Shown piece after piece: positions 23,614-37,341 of a DNA stretch of 59,062 nt. The translations under genes were made by a program, and so were the position numbers. The DNA is from a virus (lineage: Duplodnaviria; Caudoviricetes). Below the pieces are notes generated by a model, which saw nothing but the letters and a program-made list of their open reading frames with translations, was not told the DNA's origin and did no database searches. The stretch lies in IMG/VR virus record IMGVR_UViG_3300020178_000191, positions 1-59,062 of that record. One strand, 5' to 3'. Positions within the stretch are counted from its first letter, which is position 1. Each line of letters begins with the position of its first letter.

Positions 23614-25134
23614 TTATTTCTTTTCAAAACCCACTTTGTCTTGTTTACCTTCTTTTTCAATAGGTCTTAATCTCTTACTTAATACAAATGTTCTATTAGG
23701 GTTGACACTTACATTCATTTGTCGCATTAATTCTCTATTAACTAATATATCTGAGCCTGATCGTGGTCTTTGGTCTAAACCAAATTCAATATCTTTATAT
23801 GTAAAACCATTAAATGTAATATCTAATAATATCGTTGGTCTAATTTCTGATGGCTCTTCACCGTCAGCATTTGCTCTATAAACTTTACTTGTACCGTGTC
23901 TTGGTTTAGTATGAGTTTTTCCGTCATATTTCCATTTAACTATTTTACCATCTTCTAAAATTTCATCAGCGTGTAAGGCACAAGCAAGTGAACCATTTCC
24001 TGTATCAAATTTTGCTCTAACTTTTCCTAGTTCATCTAGTTCAACAGTTTCTAACCAACCACATTCACTATTTGCTTGTCTATCCCAATGACTTCTTTTT
24101 GATACCCAATCTATAATATCATACATTAATTCTTCGCCACCGATAGCGCCTGATGGTTCTGGTTCTGAATAGTAATCTTTATATTGATAACCTTCATATT
24201 CGGCACCTGAACCTGGACTACCATTGATTTCTAATACATAAGGTTTACCCTTGTAAATGATATGATCTACGCCTACAAGGTACGCTTTGGACGCTCTAGC
24301 GGCTTTTAAAATGATTTCTTGTTCTTCTTCACTTAACTTATATGGTTTTGGTGTAGCGCCTCTATGAGTGTTGGATCTAAACTCACCTTTAGCGGCAACT
24401 CTATTTGTTGACGCAAATATCTTATTATCTACGACTAAAGTTCTTACATCACCATCTACTTCCATATATTCTTGTATTAATACTTCTGCATCGTGTTTCC
24501 ATAATGCTTGTATTGTAGATACTAAACTATCCATACTTTCAATTTTAATTACACCAATACCTTGAGTACCAGTTAATGTTTTAAGTATGATAGGAAATTT
24601 ATTACCAACTAATTTTACAGCGTCTTCTATGTTTTTTTCATTTGATACAAACGCTGTTCTTGGTGTAGGTATACCAAACTTTTCAAATAGTAATGCTGTT
24701 GTTAATTTATTATCACAAGTCAGCATAGCTGATCGTGTGTTTAACATAAATGCTGATGAGTTTTGAAAGGCTGATATTAATGATAATCCAGCTTCGTCTT
24801 CAATAGAACCTGCTCGTGTAATACAAACAGTATCTTTACCTATAAATGTATGTTCAGAATCTTTACCATCATAATTATAAATGGTTAAAGTATTCTTATC
24901 TTCGTCTTTACCAGTGATGATAGCGTGTTTTGTATTGATGACAACACACTCAAAACCTTTTTTCTTACAAGCCTTTTGAATTAAACCAACTGTAAGTTCT
25001 TTTTTAGGAGCTTCACCAGCTTTTTGTTTTTTAACATTTGGATTAGACTTCGTAATAATTGCAACCGTAATCGGTTTATTTTTACGTTCTATATTTTGCT
25101 CAGTAATAAAATCTTTAAACTTCGGTACTTGCAT
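23614..25134 (-). CDS. RimK-like ATP-grasp ligase fused to a RimK-associated aspartic-protease-like domain
   Basis: GIPTPRT, ILKTLTGTQGIGV, LIQEY, FRSNTHRG, GVD, LEINGSPG; C-terminal RAKFDTGN. Confidence 0.8.
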   Translation of the reverse strand: MQVPKFKDFITEQNIERKNKPITVAIITKSNPNVKKQKAGEAPKKELTVGLIQKACKKKGFECVVINTKHAIITGKDEDKNTLTIYNYDGKDSEHTFIGKDTVCITRAGSIEDEAGLSLISAFQNSSAFMLNTRSAMLTCDNKLTTALLFEKFGIPTPRTAFVSNEKNIEDAVKLVGNKFPIILKTLTGTQGIGVIKIESMDSLVSTIQALWKHDAEVLIQEYMEVDGDVRTLVVDNKIFASTNRVAAKGEFRSNTHRGATPKPYKLSEEEQEIILKAARASKAYLVGVDHIIYKGKPYVLEINGSPGSGAEYEGYQYKDYYSEPEPSGAIGGEELMYDIIDWVSKRSHWDRQANSECGWLETVELDELGKVRAKFDTGNGSLACALHADEILEDGKIVKWKYDGKTHTKPRHGTSKVYRANADGEEPSEIRPTILLDITFNGFTYKDIEFGLDQRPRSGSDILVNRELMRQMNVSVNPNRTFVLSKRLRPIEKEGKQDKVGFEKK

Positions 25135-25576
25135 TGTCGCTATCTTTTACTTCTTCCTTATTCTCATCAATTTTTTTACCAATATTATATTTAGCTGATA
25201 GCGTCCATTCTTTTTTTTCTTTAAAAGGTAATACTTTGATTTGACTTAATGGTGCTTTGTTTTCAGCTTTTGCTGGTTTTACAATGTCAATTAAATTCCA
25301 ATCCTGTAAAAGAATAGCAATAGTATTTCTTCTTTGTATATCGTTTTCAACCAATGTAGCCTTTTTACCGTCTAAAGCAAATAGTTCTTTAAAGTGTGTT
25401 ATAAAGTATTTACCTTGTTTATGTAAAATGTGACACGATTGATAAAGTGTTTTGTCTTTTCGGGACGCTACACCAATTCTAGTTAATGTTTCTCTAACTT
25501 TAAGGAAGTCGTCTGGTTGTTTGATTGTGACCTCTAACATACTTTCAGGCGACCAGTTTACAATTTCTTCGCTCAT
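25115..25576 (-). CDS. regA: translational repressor RegA
   Basis: DDFLKVRETLTRIG, LYQSCHILHKQG, HFKELFALDG. Confidence 0.95.
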   Translation of the reverse strand: MSEEIVNWSPESMLEVTIKQPDDFLKVRETLTRIGVASRKDKTLYQSCHILHKQGKYFITHFKELFALDGKKATLVENDIQRRNTIAILLQDWNLIDIVKPAKAENKAPLSQIKVLPFKEKKEWTLSAKYNIGKKIDENKEEVKDSDNASTEV

Positions 25577-25965
25577 TTTTTTCTCCCACCTTTGTTCAAG
25601 GTCTCTTTTATAAATTCAATTTGTTCGTCTTTTAGTATGCTAAGTGCTTGTTTTGCTTTCTCATTACTATATCCATAATATTCTTTGACATACTCTAAAT
25701 TCTTCAATTTGGCTTGTGATAACCATTTGCCACCAAATCGCTTCTTTTTTCTAATACTATTTATCAAAAAATGAAACTGGACTTTCTTATCTAAAAAGTG
25801 ATAACCATTCATTTCATTGGCAGCTGCTATACTGTCATAATGCATTGATAAACACTTGTTAATGATAAACGGTGGATACTTCTTTTCCCACGTTAAATCG
25901 TCTGTATCTAATAGATTTTCTTTAGTAAAGTTTATAGCGTTTAAGTAATCTTTCAATTCGTACAT
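25573..25965 (-). CDS. gp62: clamp loader small subunit
   Basis: YPPFIINKCLS, YYGYSNEKA; position between gp44 and regA. Confidence 0.9.
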   Translation of the reverse strand: MYELKDYLNAINFTKENLLDTDDLTWEKKYPPFIINKCLSMHYDSIAAANEMNGYHFLDKKVQFHFLINSIRKKKRFGGKWLSQAKLKNLEYVKEYYGYSNEKAKQALSILKDEQIEFIKETLNKGGRKK

Positions 25966-25973
25966 AATAATTC

Positions 25974-26047
25974 TGGAGCGGATAGGCGGTAACGCTCCGC
26001 CATCTCCACGTTGGCAACGTGGCGTAATACTTCTATACCATATCCGC
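25974..26047 (-). tRNA. tRNA-Gly(GCC) with non-canonical T- and D-loops
   Basis: GCGGATA/TATCCGC acceptor stem, CCACG-TTGCCAA-CGTGG anticodon arm, GGCGG-AGCGTTA-CCGCC T arm, U73 and encoded CCA. Confidence 0.85.
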
Positions 26048-26055
26048 TTATGGTT

Positions 26056-26193
26056 TTACTTTCTTTTATTGTGTCTACCCATATACCAATCACCAGGTTC
26101 ATAATCCCATCTTTTACCGTGATGTCCTCGTATATCAGCATACCATATTCTTAATTTTACTATTAATTTTCTAAAAAATGTTCTTCTAGCCAT
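26056..26193 (-). CDS. small basic hypothetical protein (45 aa)
   Basis: Manual translation MARRTFFRKLIVKLRIWYADIRGHHGKRWDYEPGDWYMGRHNKRK. Confidence 0.5.
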   Translation of the reverse strand: MARRTFFRKLIVKLRIWYADIRGHHGKRWDYEPGDWYMGRHNKRK

Positions 26194-26202
26194 TCTAATC
26201 TC

Positions 26203-27147
26203 TTATTTAAATTTACAACTCGCCATTATTTCTGTAAGGCAGGCAACCATATTTATCTCCTGGTCAGCAACAAAGGCAGATTTATATTGATACCCAGCCA
26301 AAATTAATATAGATTGAGGAATAGATTTAGAGTCTAGTGCTGTATAGAGAACATCATAGATAGTTTTAAATAGAAAAGAGGCCTCTTTGTCCAAGTTCTG
26401 AACAACCCATTTTCTCATATCATTAAATCTTTTTTCTTTTAATGATACTATGAGTTCTTTGGTATTAGCTTCTGATAGACTAAAAAGAATACCACTATCA
26501 ATCTTACCTCTAACTGAATATCTTTGTAGTTCGTTGATAGTTCTTCTAAAGTCTGGATAATACTTTTGTATTAATTCTGACAATACTTTTTTGTCATATT
26601 CTATATTCTCATCATCAAGTATACCACCTAATCGTTTCATAAAGGCAGTAGCCGTCTTTACCTTTTGACCATTTTTTATGGCAAAATCAATGACAGTACA
26701 ACGACTATGTAATGCTGGTATTATCTTATTGACATAATTACAAGTAAATATAAATCTACAATTATTGTAAAATGTTTCTATAAAGTTTCTTAAAGCAGGC
26801 TGAACACTATCAGCGTTCATATAATCTGCCTCATCAATTATGACAACTTTATGATTAGCGTCTTCGGTAAGAGATACAGTAGAAGCAAAGTTTTTAATCT
26901 TATTTCTTAATGTATCTATTTGACGGCCTTCGTCTGAACCATTAATAATGATATAATCACTACCTAGTTCTTCACATAAGGCTCTTGCTACTGTTGTTTT
27001 ACCAGTACCGGCAGTACCAGACAACAATAGGTTAGGTATTTCTTTTTGTTTTAGAAATTGTGTAAATGTATTCTTTAAATCTTCGGTAAGAATACAATCG
27101 CTTATCTTTTTTGGACGGTATTTTTCAACCCACAAAAAATCTGACAT
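26203..27147 (-). CDS. gp44: clamp loader large subunit
   Basis: LWVEKYRP, GTAGTGKTT, IIDEAD, SRC. Confidence 0.95.
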   Translation of the reverse strand: MSDFLWVEKYRPKKISDCILTEDLKNTFTQFLKQKEIPNLLLSGTAGTGKTTVARALCEELGSDYIIINGSDEGRQIDTLRNKIKNFASTVSLTEDANHKVVIIDEADYMNADSVQPALRNFIETFYNNCRFIFTCNYVNKIIPALHSRCTVIDFAIKNGQKVKTATAFMKRLGGILDDENIEYDKKVLSELIQKYYPDFRRTINELQRYSVRGKIDSGILFSLSEANTKELIVSLKEKRFNDMRKWVVQNLDKEASFLFKTIYDVLYTALDSKSIPQSILILAGYQYKSAFVADQEINMVACLTEIMASCKFK

Positions 27148-28248: not shown

Positions 28249-28791
28249 TTATTTTGATTTCAAATAACTTATCATATTCTCTGGTGTAGTTTCAACGTAT
28301 GGGTCATTATCTGATCCGTCATTATTGATACCTGGTTCTTGCCACCACTTTTCAACAACTCCATCGTTAATAACTGCCATATATCTCCAACTTCTATTAC
28401 CAAAGCCTTTATGATTTTTTCCAATTAACATTCCCATAAATCTAGTAAAATTACCAGATCCATCAGGAATTACTTTTACATTTTTGATTTTTAAAATTTC
28501 TGCCCAAGCGTTCATAACAAATGTATCATTTACTGAACAACAATAGATTTCATCTATTCCAAGACTTTTAATTTTTTCATAGTTTTCATCAAAGCCTGGT
28601 AATTGAGTAGATGTACAAGTTGGTGTAAAAGCACCAGGTAGAGAAAACAATACAACTCTTTTGCCTTTAAAAAAGTCGTCTGTAGATTTTTCTACCCACT
28701 TACCCTCATCAAAGTTACAGCCATCTTCTAATACAGAATCGCCTTCTCTTATTTTAAAATTAGTTTTTGGTATTACAAATTTATCAAACAT
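28249..28791 (-). CDS. peroxiredoxin (Prx5 type)
   Basis: LPGAFTPTCT, SVNDTFVMNAW, DGSGNFT, RSWRY. Confidence 0.92.
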   Translation of the reverse strand: MFDKFVIPKTNFKIREGDSVLEDGCNFDEGKWVEKSTDDFFKGKRVVLFSLPGAFTPTCTSTQLPGFDENYEKIKSLGIDEIYCCSVNDTFVMNAWAEILKIKNVKVIPDGSGNFTRFMGMLIGKNHKGFGNRSWRYMAVINDGVVEKWWQEPGINNDGSDNDPYVETTPENMISYLKSK

Positions 28792-28813
28792 TATTTACTC
28801 CTCGTTCAAATTT

Positions 28814-28887
28814 TGGAGCGGATGGACTGTACTGCCCAATCTTTTCCTGGTTGGAAACCAAGTGTATTACTTTTATACGACATCCGC
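28814..28887 (-). tRNA. tRNA-Gly(TCC) with non-canonical T- and D-loops
   Basis: GCGGATG/CATCCGC acceptor stem, GTAT-AAAAGTA-ATAC D arm, CTTGG-TTTCCAA-CCAGG anticodon arm, GATTG-GGCAGTA-CAGTC T arm, U73 and CCA. Confidence 0.85.
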
Positions 28888-28894
28888 ATTATTT

Positions 28895-28923
28895 AATATA
28901 TCACAAAGCTATTCTAAAGTCAA
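28895..28923 (-). promoter_or_regulatory. sigma70-type promoter for tRNA-Gly(TCC)
   Basis: TTGACT-N17-TATATT with TG extension, ending 7 nt before the tRNA. Confidence 0.6.
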
Positions 28924-29733
28924 TGCTGGTTTATAATTCATAATTAATACTTCTTTACCTTTACCAGCGCCTTTGTTTTTACTAGCGTTTTGTTTATTAA
29001 ATTCTTTTTCTATCCAAGTGTATTGATCTTTTGGAAACCACTTTTGTAAATCTGGAAAGTCATAATAAGACAATACAAATTTACCTTTTATTTCTTTTAG
29101 TTTATTGGCCAGGTCTTCGTGCTGGCTTCTTTGAAAGTCTTTTACATAGTAATCTTCCATTTTATAGTATGGAGGATCAACATAAAATAATGTATCTTCT
29201 TTATCATACATATTAATAACTGTTTCATATGATTCGTTATGAATATGATTTATGCCTTTAATAAAATATAACCATTTTTTATCACTAATTTTATCTATAA
29301 AATGTTGATACTTTGATTTATATTTACCTTTTAAATTTACAAACTTTGTTTTTTCATTTAGAGTATCACCACTAAAACTTTGAGTTTGTAGGTAGATATA
29401 TTTTGTGGCTCTTTCAATATCACCTAGTTCAAAGTCTGTATTAAATGGTATTAAATCTGATTTAAATTGATTAAAAATTTCTTCTTGTTGTGGTTCATAT
29501 GACAATAAAGATTTTAAAAATTCTCTATCTTTATGTCTGGCACAATGAAATATATTTGCTATATCTCTATTAAAATCATTATATACATTTGTATGAGCCT
29601 GATCTATTTGGTGGTTGGCCACAAAATAAACCCAATAGGCACCACCAAATGGTTCAACATAAGTATTATGTTTTGGAAAGTTGGAGGCAATCCATTTTGC
29701 CTGAAACTTTTTACCACCAAGATAACTAAACAC
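28909..29733 (-). CDS. Dam/D12-class N6-adenine DNA methyltransferase
   Basis: SYLGGK, YVEPFGG, VYND, FYVDPPY, FVLSY. Confidence 0.9.
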   Translation of the reverse strand: MFSYLGGKKFQAKWIASNFPKHNTYVEPFGGAYWVYFVANHQIDQAHTNVYNDFNRDIANIFHCARHKDREFLKSLLSYEPQQEEIFNQFKSDLIPFNTDFELGDIERATKYIYLQTQSFSGDTLNEKTKFVNLKGKYKSKYQHFIDKISDKKWLYFIKGINHIHNESYETVINMYDKEDTLFYVDPPYYKMEDYYVKDFQRSQHEDLANKLKEIKGKFVLSYYDFPDLQKWFPKDQYTWIEKEFNKQNASKNKGAGKGKEVLIMNYKPALTLE

Positions 29734-36039: not shown

Positions 36040-37341
36040 TTATCGGCCTACTTGATTTAGAAAGTGATTCTTACATTCTTCCCAATTCATATAGATTAAT
36101 TCATCATAAAAATGGCTGTCTGTATTATATCTGCCTTGTTCAACCAGTGATTTTACACGTTTTTTAGCGTGTTTTTCTTTCCATACTTTAACTAGTGATT
36201 CGGTACTACTATCAAATCTTTTAACTAAATCTTTCGCCTCTATCTTACCACATAGAAATTCGTTAGTATTTTCATATAATTTTGTAAAGTAGATACCTCT
36301 TTGGTGTTCAGTTCTAATATATTCTTTTGGTATATCTAGTTTTGAATACGTAAAGTTTAGTGATCTATTCTTATGATCTCTTTTTAATGGTTGGCCGTTA
36401 GGTCTTTTGGCTTCGTGCCATTCCCAATACTTTCTAGTATGATTTTTCTTTAACCAAGTCCATATCATATTTCTAACTTTTCTACTAGGTTGAAATGATA
36501 CAGAACCAGTTGTAAAACCCATTCTTTTCCAATATTTTAAACCATCATATTGAGATAGTGTATTGGCCTTTGCCTTACCGTATAAACTAGTAGTTGTTAC
36601 GCCAACTAACTTATCACCATATTTTTCTTCCCATATTCTTTGTACATCATCTGATAAACACAGATACGCTAATAATTTACCACCTGTAAATGAATATCCT
36701 AATGGTTGTGTTGGTACAATAGAAGAACCTATTGCTGTATGATTAATTTTACCCTCAAAGGTTTTAATTTGTCTATCCCAACCTATAAACTTATCACGTG
36801 GTGTTAAATCCATAAAGTCACCTGAAATACAAATGACACCAAGGTATTTGCCTGATCTATTATCTTTTACTATAAAAAATAGTTGTCTACCAATGTTTGA
36901 ATTGTTTTTCATAGTAGATAAGAAAGTTCTTAATGTATTCCACTTTTCTGATAAATCACCTCTCTTTTTAGAACCATCAAATCTTGTTTCTGTATCATCT
37001 GTAAATTCTAATACAGGTTCTAACTTATCAATATCTTCTGGTGATTCTGGAATCCAAATATTATTTTTAACTGTTTTAATAAAGGCCTCTTGTTCAGGAT
37101 TGACAAGGGCAGGTTTATCATCAAAGAAACTATTTGTTTCTGCTGTAGGATATTTTTCGTGTACTTCTATCCATTTCTCGTACAATGTATATTCTTGTAC
37201 GGTCATTTTAGATACAAAGGCTAAATCTTTTTCAACCATTAATTTTAAATGGTTTTGGTCTATATCTTCTACTTTAGATATATCGTTTTTTTCACACCAC
37301 TCTTTGTATTGATTTTCAACAAATTGATCTTCACTACTCAT
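36040..37341 (-). CDS. DUF4338/DruA-like, Mom-like GNAT-fold protein (paralogue 1)
   Basis: GRQLFFIVKD..SGKYLGVICI, RDKFIGW, IVPTQPLGYSFTGGKLLA, TTTSLYG, SQYDGL..WKRMGFT.G. Confidence 0.65.
   Translation of the reverse strand: MSSEDQFVENQYKEWCEKNDISKVEDIDQNHLKLMVEKDLAFVSKMTVQEYTLYEKWIEVHEKYPTAETNSFFDDKPALVNPEQEAFIKTVKNNIWIPESPEDIDKLEPVLEFTDDTETRFDGSKKRGDLSEKWNTLRTFLSTMKNNSNIGRQLFFIVKDNRSGKYLGVICISGDFMDLTPRDKFIGWDRQIKTFEGKINHTAIGSSIVPTQPLGYSFTGGKLLAYLCLSDDVQRIWEEKYGDKLVGVTTTSLYGKAKANTLSQYDGLKYWKRMGFTTGSVSFQPSRKVRNMIWTWLKKNHTRKYWEWHEAKRPNGQPLKRDHKNRSLNFTYSKLDIPKEYIRTEHQRGIYFTKLYENTNEFLCGKIEAKDLVKRFDSSTESLVKVWKEKHAKKRVKSLVEQGRYNTDSHFYDELIYMNWEECKNHFLNQVGR

Follow-up and report, generated by a model that had tools for sequence, protein, structure and literature searches.

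A tRNA gene that has intact stems and amino acid identity elements and a strongly altered elbow raises the question of whether it is a decaying remnant or a working molecule of unusual architecture. Such a gene, a tRNA-Gly(GCC), is found in the window, by which we mean the whole stretch of 59,062 nucleotides analysed here (IMG/VR virus record IMGVR_UViG_3300020178_000191). The initial annotation had described perfectly paired acceptor, anticodon and T stems, intact glycine identity elements, altered D- and T-loops in which A18/G55 stands for G18/U55 and A54/U58 for U54/A58, and a retained G19-C56; every element of this description is correct, the gene being read on the minus strand.

Two tRNA-Gly genes in a T4-type replication module

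The only gene that ARAGORN calls in the window is this tRNA-Gly(gcc), with exactly the boundaries given in Table 1. On the minus strand it reads GCGGAUA UG GUAU AGAAGUA UUAC G CCACG UUGCCAA CGUGG AGAU GGCGG AGCGUUA CCGCC UAUCCGC U CCA, with perfect pairing in the acceptor, anticodon and T stems, a G/C-rich T stem (G49-C65, G50-C64, C51-G63), a U13-U22 mismatch in the D stem, a variable loop of 4 nt and G/U at positions 15/48. The identity set of GlyRS, which the relevant sections of PMC7826273 and PMC10464925 give as G1-C72, C2-G71, U73, C35 and C36, is complete, and CCA is encoded. The D-loop is AGAAGUA (A14 G15 A16 A18 G19 U20 A21) and the T-loop is AGCGUUA (A54 G55 C56 G57 U58 U59 A60). The elbow is thus A18/G55 and A54/U58 with G19-C56 retained, and of the conserved set G18, G19, U54, U55, C56 and A58 only G19 and C56 are left. 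The minimum-energy fold is the cloverleaf (z = -2.26; 3 of 200 shuffles equally good). A low or pseudogene-like score had been expected, and the Rfam RF00005 score indeed lies below the 62-69 bits of the three canonical tRNAs of phage Mosig; at 51.9 bits, however, it is well over the gathering score of 29. A 62-aa ORF at 25953-26141 (minus strand) spans the gene and is probably spurious, the same sort of call as the CDS annotated at the Mosig copy (see below).

Table 1. Positions of the tRNA genes, the promoter-like site and the adjoining genes in the window, and of A18/G55 tRNAs of other identities in other viral loci.
Feature	Position	Strand	Basis
tRNA-Gly(GCC), encoded CCA	25974..26047	-	ARAGORN, Rfam 51.9 bits, cloverleaf fold, family covariation
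tRNA-Gly(UCC), non-canonical, encoded CCA	28814..28887	-	Rfam, sequence, cloverleaf fold
Sigma-70-like promoter TTGACT-17-TATATT, extended TG	28895..28923	-	10/12 matches, second best on strand
gp44-type clamp-loader large subunit, upstream of first tRNA	26203..27147	-	Pfam AAA, Gp44_lid
gp62-type clamp-loader small subunit	25573..25965	-	Pfam Phage_clamp_A, 27.7 bits
Redoxin/peroxiredoxin, immediately downstream of tRNA-Gly(UCC)	28249..28791	-	Pfam Redoxin, 85.1 bits; RNA-library contig 28653-28982
A18/G55 tRNA-Thr(GGU)	L145:1601-1671		Rfam 51.1 bits, passes gathering score
A18/G55 tRNA-Cys(GCA)	L186:8371-8444		Rfam 43.4 bits, passes gathering score
A18/G55 candidate Ile-GAU	L189:8056-8126		Below Rfam gathering score; scanner or R1 only
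A18/G55 candidate Pro-UGG	L195:2219-2290		Below Rfam gathering score; scanner or R1 only
A18/G55 candidate Thr-UGU	L238:7170-7241		Below Rfam gathering score; scanner or R1 only

The window, whose estimated completeness is 27%, has every gene on the minus strand and is related to the Pelagibacter phages Mosig and HTVC008M; it is a fragment of a T4-like pelagimyophage. Both tRNA genes lie in a T4-type replication module with the order RimK-like ATP-grasp, RegA, gp62, first tRNA, gp44, unknown ORF, gp45, redoxin, second tRNA, Dam methylase, Hsp20, CobS-like AAA protein, DruA-like protein, peptide deformylase, gp46/47, gp55 and UvsW. The gp62-type gene starts 9 nt downstream of the CCA of the first tRNA, and no promoter-like site accompanies this tRNA, which must be cut from the gp44-gp62 transcript. 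A Pfam domain search of 20 window ORFs revealed no gene for a tRNA-dependent transferase or a tRNA nuclease or toxin. Moreover, FemAB (PF02388), Acetyltransf_6 (PF13480) and Leu_Phe_trans were not found in the whole records of the window, Mosig and HTVC008M (PF02388 and PF13480 in 0 of 3 records, with positive controls). Two other proteins of the module can be mentioned. The 506-aa RimK-like ATP-grasp protein (23614-25134, minus strand) weakly resembles, at its C terminus, a putative ATP-dependent zinc protease family, and the corresponding protein of Mosig carries the annotation glutathione synthetase. A 433-aa protein (36040-37341, minus strand) matches the Druantia DruA family with 70.6 bits and represents a defence-system family inside a lytic T4-like phage.

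The second tRNA-Gly, with a UCC anticodon, is located 2.8 kb upstream of the first one. It was missed by ARAGORN and reaches 39.3 bits in Rfam RF00005 at 28817-28887 (threshold 29), and both window tRNAs pass the gathering threshold as cloverleaves with 7/4/5/5-bp stems. Its D-loop is AAAAGUA (A18 G19) and its T-loop GGCAGUA (G54 G55 C56 A57 G58); positions 18, 54, 55 and 58 are accordingly A, G, G and G, with G19 and C56 retained. The pairs 49-65, 50-64 and 51-63 are G-C, A-U and U-G, and the GlyRS identity set (G1-C72, C2-G71, U73, C35, C36) is intact in the sequence. The minimum-energy fold is again the cloverleaf (z = -3.50), and none of 200 shuffles was as good. The promoter-like site of Table 1 stops 7 nt ahead of G1 of this tRNA, so that the predicted start is at, or adjoins, the mature 5' end; the total of such sites in the region (20, versus 18.1 in shuffles) shows no excess. 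The redoxin gene is probably co-transcribed with tRNA-Gly(UCC).

The A18/G55 family of tRNA-Gly

Relatives were sampled with a fixed D-arm pattern carrying A18, the T arm being left free. At least 115 IMG/VR stretches matched, and the 118 pattern matches listed in them comprise 117 tRNA-Gly-like sequences and one chance match (L116); one locus (L045) is cut by its end. Together with the window, Mosig, HTVC008M and one contig of a metagenome-assembled genome (MAG), the IMG/VR matches listed gave 121 copies and 50 distinct sequences. Among the matches listed, A18, G19, G55, C56, U73, C35 and C36 are invariant in all 50 distinct members, and G1-C72 and C2-G71 are invariant or nearly so. Standard pairs occupy 88.8% of the paired cells in the alignment of the 50 members. 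In shuffles the figure is 72.7%, and with slid partners it falls to 33-48%. Changes on both sides were found in 13 of the 24 pairs, namely three in the acceptor stem, all five in the anticodon stem, four of five in the T stem, and 54/58. The family is a structured RNA under purifying selection and not a decaying gene. The covariation in homologues, with A18 and G55 jointly invariant in 50/50 distinct members listed and the stems changing in a compensatory manner, bears out the earlier proposal of compensatory redesign rather than decay. The loss of the universal U54, U55 and G18, together with an Rfam score below those of canonical tRNAs, could suggest a decaying tRNA pseudogene; that reading is effectively ruled out by the covariation and the invariant elbow residues, and also has against it the conservation in at least 115 viral stretches.

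The T-loops observed in the family are AGCGUUA, GGCAGUA, UGCAUUA, UGCAAUA, UGCGUUA, CGCAAUA and UGCGAUU. Among the 50 distinct members listed, positions 54/58 are GG in 16, UU in 11, UA in 11, AU in 10 and CA in 2. The A54/U58 swap pointed out for the window tRNA is therefore real, but it is merely one of several states in the family, 39 of 50 members being other than U-A at 54/58; A15/A48 is found in 27 of 50 (both among the matches listed). At position 34 the distinct members listed have U 31 times, A 18 times and G once, G being the window's own type. At 51-63, 43 of 50 family members have A/U in either orientation, whereas 63 of 72 canonical relatives have G/C (matches listed). The functional proposals of the initial annotation, altered use of EF-Tu or the ribosome and evasion of nucleases or modifying toxins, are speculative; only this difference, which the window's own C51-G63 does not share, bears on them, and it does so indirectly. 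Of the 50 distinct members, 40 encode CCA, which is absent from nine of the cyanophage-like UGCAAUA type and from L012; pelagiphage-like members carry an encoded CCA, whereas cyanophage-like members do not. A covariance model of the family, R1, scores members at 86-91 bits and canonical T4-like tRNA-Gly at 50-74 bits, a separation that is not sharp.

A TTGAC[AT]-N15-19-TANNNT site is located upstream of 24 of the 50 distinct members, mostly ending 7-8 nt before G1, a distance that predicts nearly leaderless transcripts. These 24 members are immediately preceded by a strong promoter-like site and immediately followed by an ORF, and the first tRNA of the window is wedged between gp44 and gp62, an arrangement that would suit a non-aminoacylated, tRNA-shaped element that signals processing or stability in polycistronic early mRNAs, at the 5' end or internally. 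We consider this very unlikely, because U73, CCA, G1-C72, C2-G71 and C35/C36 vary little or not at all, which would be needless for a mere cleavage signal, and because the anticodon is always NCC. Moreover, the genomic positions differ among phages, so that no particular downstream gene depends on the tRNA. Another conserved element was observed just upstream of the HTVC008M-type copies: at L002 5960-6005, and in the upstream flanks of L014, L081, L090 and L048, a G+C hairpin and then a U-run come after a conserved GUAGACCUCGUA... stretch, possibly forming a terminator or an independent RNA element.

Canonical and family tRNA-Gly(UCC) co-exist in five loci (L008, L016, L047, L089 and L098), which hints at a non-redundant role. 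A small subfamily (L016:8193-8264, L047:3985-4056 and L089:10165-10236) has the T-loop UGCGAUU, and the 3' strand of its T stem carries an extra A as a bulge. The L016 and L047 members have the anticodon loop CUUCCCG, with C37 and a possible C32-G38 pair; in L089 it is UUUCCCA, with C37 and no C32-G38 pair. Each of these three loci also has a canonical tRNA-Gly(UCC).

Four family members used as BLAST queries against 50,697 GenBank phage records retrieved only HTVC008M and Mosig. The Mosig copy (MT647606, 7774-7869; L001) has an ACC anticodon and is annotated as a CDS, hypothetical protein Mosig_000011. The HTVC008M copy (NC_020484, record positions 91140-91210; L002) also has an ACC anticodon and lies at an unannotated site; Table 1 of a pelagimyophage survey gives this phage 0 tRNAs (PMC7029224). 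No member was found by model R1 in Melnitz (best match 36.7 bits), and none in P-HM2. ARAGORN recovers 20 of 120 family copies. As the family is mostly missed or misannotated, the tRNA content is underestimated for some phages that rank among the most abundant in the sea, and this affects the host predictions derived from it. The pattern was additionally run against one genome each of 185,579 species, where it matched 22 stretches, only one of which holds a family member. This sole cellular hit (L140) is on a 10.8-kb contig of the MAG Alphaproteobacteria bacterium TMED93; since the MAG's own tRNA-Gly(UCC, GCC) are canonical, the contig looks like binned phage DNA, and we take it to be such. 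The A18/G55 variant is therefore essentially confined to phages. All 41 other tRNAs that ARAGORN calls in the family loci have the canonical elbow, with GG and UUCRA.

Coupling of positions 18 and 55

A comparison set was obtained with the same pattern having a residue other than A at position 18, which matched at least 120 IMG/VR stretches and yielded 72 distinct tRNA-Gly. Among the matches listed, 70 of the 72 combine G18 with U55 and two combine G18 with C55, and neither A18 with U55 nor G18 with G55 occurs in the two glycine sets (50 and 72 distinct sequences listed). Within tRNA-Gly of one D stem, the split between A18 with G55 and G18 with U55 or C55 is thus perfect (50 versus 72 distinct sequences listed). 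A purpose-written strict cloverleaf scanner, applied to 237 viral loci, gave 498 distinct hits, of which 488 have C56. These 488 consist of 441 with GG and U55, 43 with AG (no GG) and G55, two with GG and C55, one with GG and G55, and one with AG and U55. In the GG and G55 exception (L195) the GG is probably not 18-19, and the AG and U55 exception (L226) is devoid of CCA.

The A18/G55 form is also found in phage tRNAs of other identities (Table 1), which are located within tRNA arrays of other phages. The tRNA-Thr(GGU) form occurs additionally at L199; it is present in 15 IMG/VR stretches as three distinct sequences, and the stems of L309 show compensatory changes. The coupling of 18 and 55 thus recurs across identities, as true compensation predicts, and this recurrence and the split among the 488 sequences further strengthen the case for redesign.

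The two parts of the elbow change are separable, as A54/U58 stands beside a normal G18/U55 in L189 and L252. The T-loop AUCGUUA, which has A54/U58 with G18/U55 normal, was found in phage tRNAs for Lys, Phe, His, Trp, Met, Gln, Asp, Thr and Gly, for example at L171:5348, L201:1735, L211 (minus strand, offset 165) and L254 (minus strand, offset 13314). The A54/U58 part of the window elbow is a commoner phage variant.

A tree of 57 columns was largely unresolved, so that the number of A18/G55 origins within tRNA-Gly is not countable: a freely built quick tree implied 7 changes, and a tree constrained to one clade was better by 34 log-likelihood units. A single A18/G55 clade inside the canonical tRNA-Gly group was not rejected (p-AU 0.79), and on tree evidence alone the change within tRNA-Gly could be one single event.

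Probable decoding of glycine codons and alternative roles

The feature is probably a working phage tRNA-Gly decoder, charged by the host GlyRS and forming one of a GCC/UCC pair, in which A18-G55 replaces G18-Psi55. The tertiary contact G18-Psi55 would have been exchanged for a co-varying A18-G55 across the family, a large one spread among marine T4-like phages, and the retention of G19-C56, G53-C61, U8-A14 and the whole cloverleaf would preserve the L-shape. The outer platform G19-C56 is the surface on which elbow-recognising partners stack. The first tRNA would be transcribed with its neighbours and the UCC copy from its own promoter, starting at or near G1. Processing would be followed by glycylation by the host GlyRS through G1-C72, C2-G71, U73, C35 and C36. 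On the ribosome the GCC tRNA would read GGU/GGC and the UCC copy GGA/GGG. With A, A, G and U at positions 18, 54, 55 and 58, no Gm18, m5U54, Psi55 or m1A58 is possible; the elbow would be modification-free and would no longer present the U54-U55 read by T-loop enzymes.

Several observations are consistent with decoding. In the experiments described in PMC10464925, alpha2-beta2 GlyRS requires the L-shape and the one enzyme tested was insensitive to loop sequences. The glycine codons of 54 window ORFs (n=1,022) are GGT in 674 cases (66%), GGC in 179 (17.5%), GGA in 157 (15.4%) and GGG in 12 (1.2%); judged from the anticodons, GCC, or ACC in the relatives, would fit the dominant codon, and GCC and UCC together would cover the codon box in the window. 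Moreover, at L011 and L017 the family member lies between conserved flanks at the site where cyanophage S-SSM7 has its annotated canonical tRNA-Gly. Part of the stretch is present in 18 runs recorded as RNA, the four examined being represented by Logan contigs only, in which gaps in coverage carry no weight. RNA-library contigs of several studies cover both tRNAs (25953-26054 and 28653-28982), which is weak evidence of expression, as such contigs may stem from DNA carry-over and give no ends, strand or level.

Against decoding we count the freely varying position 34, which could reflect a relaxed decoding constraint, the A/U bias at 51-63, the co-existence of canonical and family tRNA-Gly(UCC), and the subfamily with the bulged T stem and the possible C32-G38 pair. 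All of these would suit a non-ribosomal glycine donor, by analogy with the staphylococcal non-proteogenic (NP) tRNA-Gly: it would be charged by GlyRS, bind EF-Tu weakly and serve a phage or host aminoacyl-tRNA-dependent transferase. The constancy of the GlyRS elements C35/C36 beside a variable position 34 also speaks for it. As far as PMC7826273 and PMC13443448 describe them, the NP tRNA-Gly share with the window tRNA the glycine identity, G55, the lack of Psi55 and a hypomodified elbow, with TGC or TGT in place of TTC (PMC7826273). They also lack the conserved G residues of the D-loop, and the C32-G38 pair possible in L016 and L047 is likewise found in them (PMC13443448). Their weak EF-Tu binding is attributed to A-U at 49-65 and 51-63 (PMC7826273, PMC13443448).

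We nevertheless regard a donor role as improbable. According to the same descriptions, NP tRNA-Gly lose both G18 and G19, whereas the family keeps G19 with C56 in 50/50 members listed. They have the weak set A49-U65, U50-A64 and A51-U63 and are all UCC, unlike the window tRNA with its G/C-rich T stem and GCC anticodon. They serve FemXAB in a staphylococci-only lineage, and no Fem-type gene or other transferase domain of those searched occurs in the window, Mosig or HTVC008M, although a host or novel enzyme might take this part. The hosts are Gram-negative and have no glycine cross-bridges, a further point against a donor. In addition, phage tRNA arrays contain the same elbow in tRNAs for Thr and Cys and in candidates for Ile and Pro, the anticodons match the codon usage, and one relative replaces the canonical tRNA-Gly at an orthologous site.

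Returning to the decoder, the reason for the elbow change has to be considered. Neutral compensated drift, independence from the modification enzymes TruB, TrmA and TrmH, and escape from a factor that reads the T-loop all fit the data. Neutral compensated change is a real possibility, and the other two are each more tentative. The last of them, suggested in the initial annotation, would sit on top of the decoder explanation: selection would have reshaped the elbow so that it evades a U54-U55/G18-reading factor, such as a T-loop nuclease or toxin of the host or a competitor, or a phage enzyme disabling the host tRNA-Gly. That positions 18, 54, 55 and 58 are all changed in both window tRNAs, that the window phage has a full replacement set (GCC and UCC), and that the variant is essentially phage-confined (one member among 22 hits in 185,579 species) point in this direction. 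The evasion of tRNA-directed defences through sequence changes is an established theme of phage tRNAs. On the other hand, no nuclease or toxin candidate was found among the 20 window ORFs, and the other tRNAs in the family loci are canonical (41/41), so that any escaped factor would have to be specific. As a single origin of the glycine family was not rejected, its long persistence may also be plain inheritance, and on the whole we hold a selected escape to be rather unlikely.

The nearest known relatives of the family are the canonical T4-like phage tRNA-Gly, such as SSSM7_181 of S-SSM7 and about 115 IMG/VR examples. They share with it the GCGG... acceptor start, U73, a 7-nt D-loop, a 4-nt variable loop and the NCC anticodon, and the IMG/VR examples also the GUAU of the 5' strand of the D stem. 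The canonical sequences, which we take to resemble phage T4's own tRNA-Gly, have G18 G19 and UUCGAUU, where the family has A18 G19 and NGCNNUA. Among the matches listed, ACC anticodons occur only in the family and not in canonical T4-like tRNA-Gly. The S-SSM7 gene has no encoded CCA, like the cyanophage-like family members.

Functional tRNAs without the canonical G18 G19/T-Psi-C elbow are known in tRNA-Pyl and type II mitochondrial tRNAs; in the account given by PMC7609411 these have short D-loops and have also lost G19-C56, whereas here the loops are standard and the inner pair is exchanged. A partial parallel is the eukaryotic cytosolic tRNA-Ala(AGC) as described by Westhof et al. 2020 (PMC7566577), with R15/A48, a non-U-A pair at 54/58 and A34 in a four-codon box. 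The family shows A15/A48 in 27/50, non-U-A 54/58 in 39/50 and A34 in 18/50 (matches listed). In tRNA-Ala(AGC), however, 54/58 is A/A and G18/U55 is untouched, and according to the authors such unusual pairs do not occur in the tRNAs of bacteria or archaea (PMC7566577).

In the literature on A18/G55, phage T-loop variants and pelagimyophage tRNAs, with the supplementary tRNA lists of PMC7029224 and PMC9004378 outside the scope of the search, no description of the variant was found. The A18-G55 elbow and the phage tRNA-Gly family thus appear to be undescribed and mostly unannotated; phage tRNAs are themselves known, and what is apparently new is the recurrent structural variant. The relevant passages of PMC7912444 regard G18-Psi55 as a universal feature of cytoplasmic tRNAs. 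It is conceivable, and we put it forward tentatively, that A18-G55 is a second recurring way of building the elbow, used by phages, essentially absent from cells and extending over several identities (Gly, Thr and Cys, with Ile and Pro as candidates), which would give phages a private pool of tRNAs devoid of the Gm18, m5U54, Psi55 and m1A58 sites. If so, host enzymes and nucleases reading the T-loop would all fail to act on these tRNAs, which would still be active on the ribosome. A large, conserved natural family also offers a ready test of the role of G18-Psi55 and of the modifications at 18, 54, 55 and 58 in folding, processing, EF-Tu binding and decoding.

Finally, A34 is hardly ever used in cellular tRNAs, according to the part of PMC11066159 that deals with it. 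In pelagimyophages the A18-G55 elbow accompanies this otherwise avoided A34 in the glycine anticodon, and the frequent ACC anticodons of the family add natural cases of A34 in a four-codon box.
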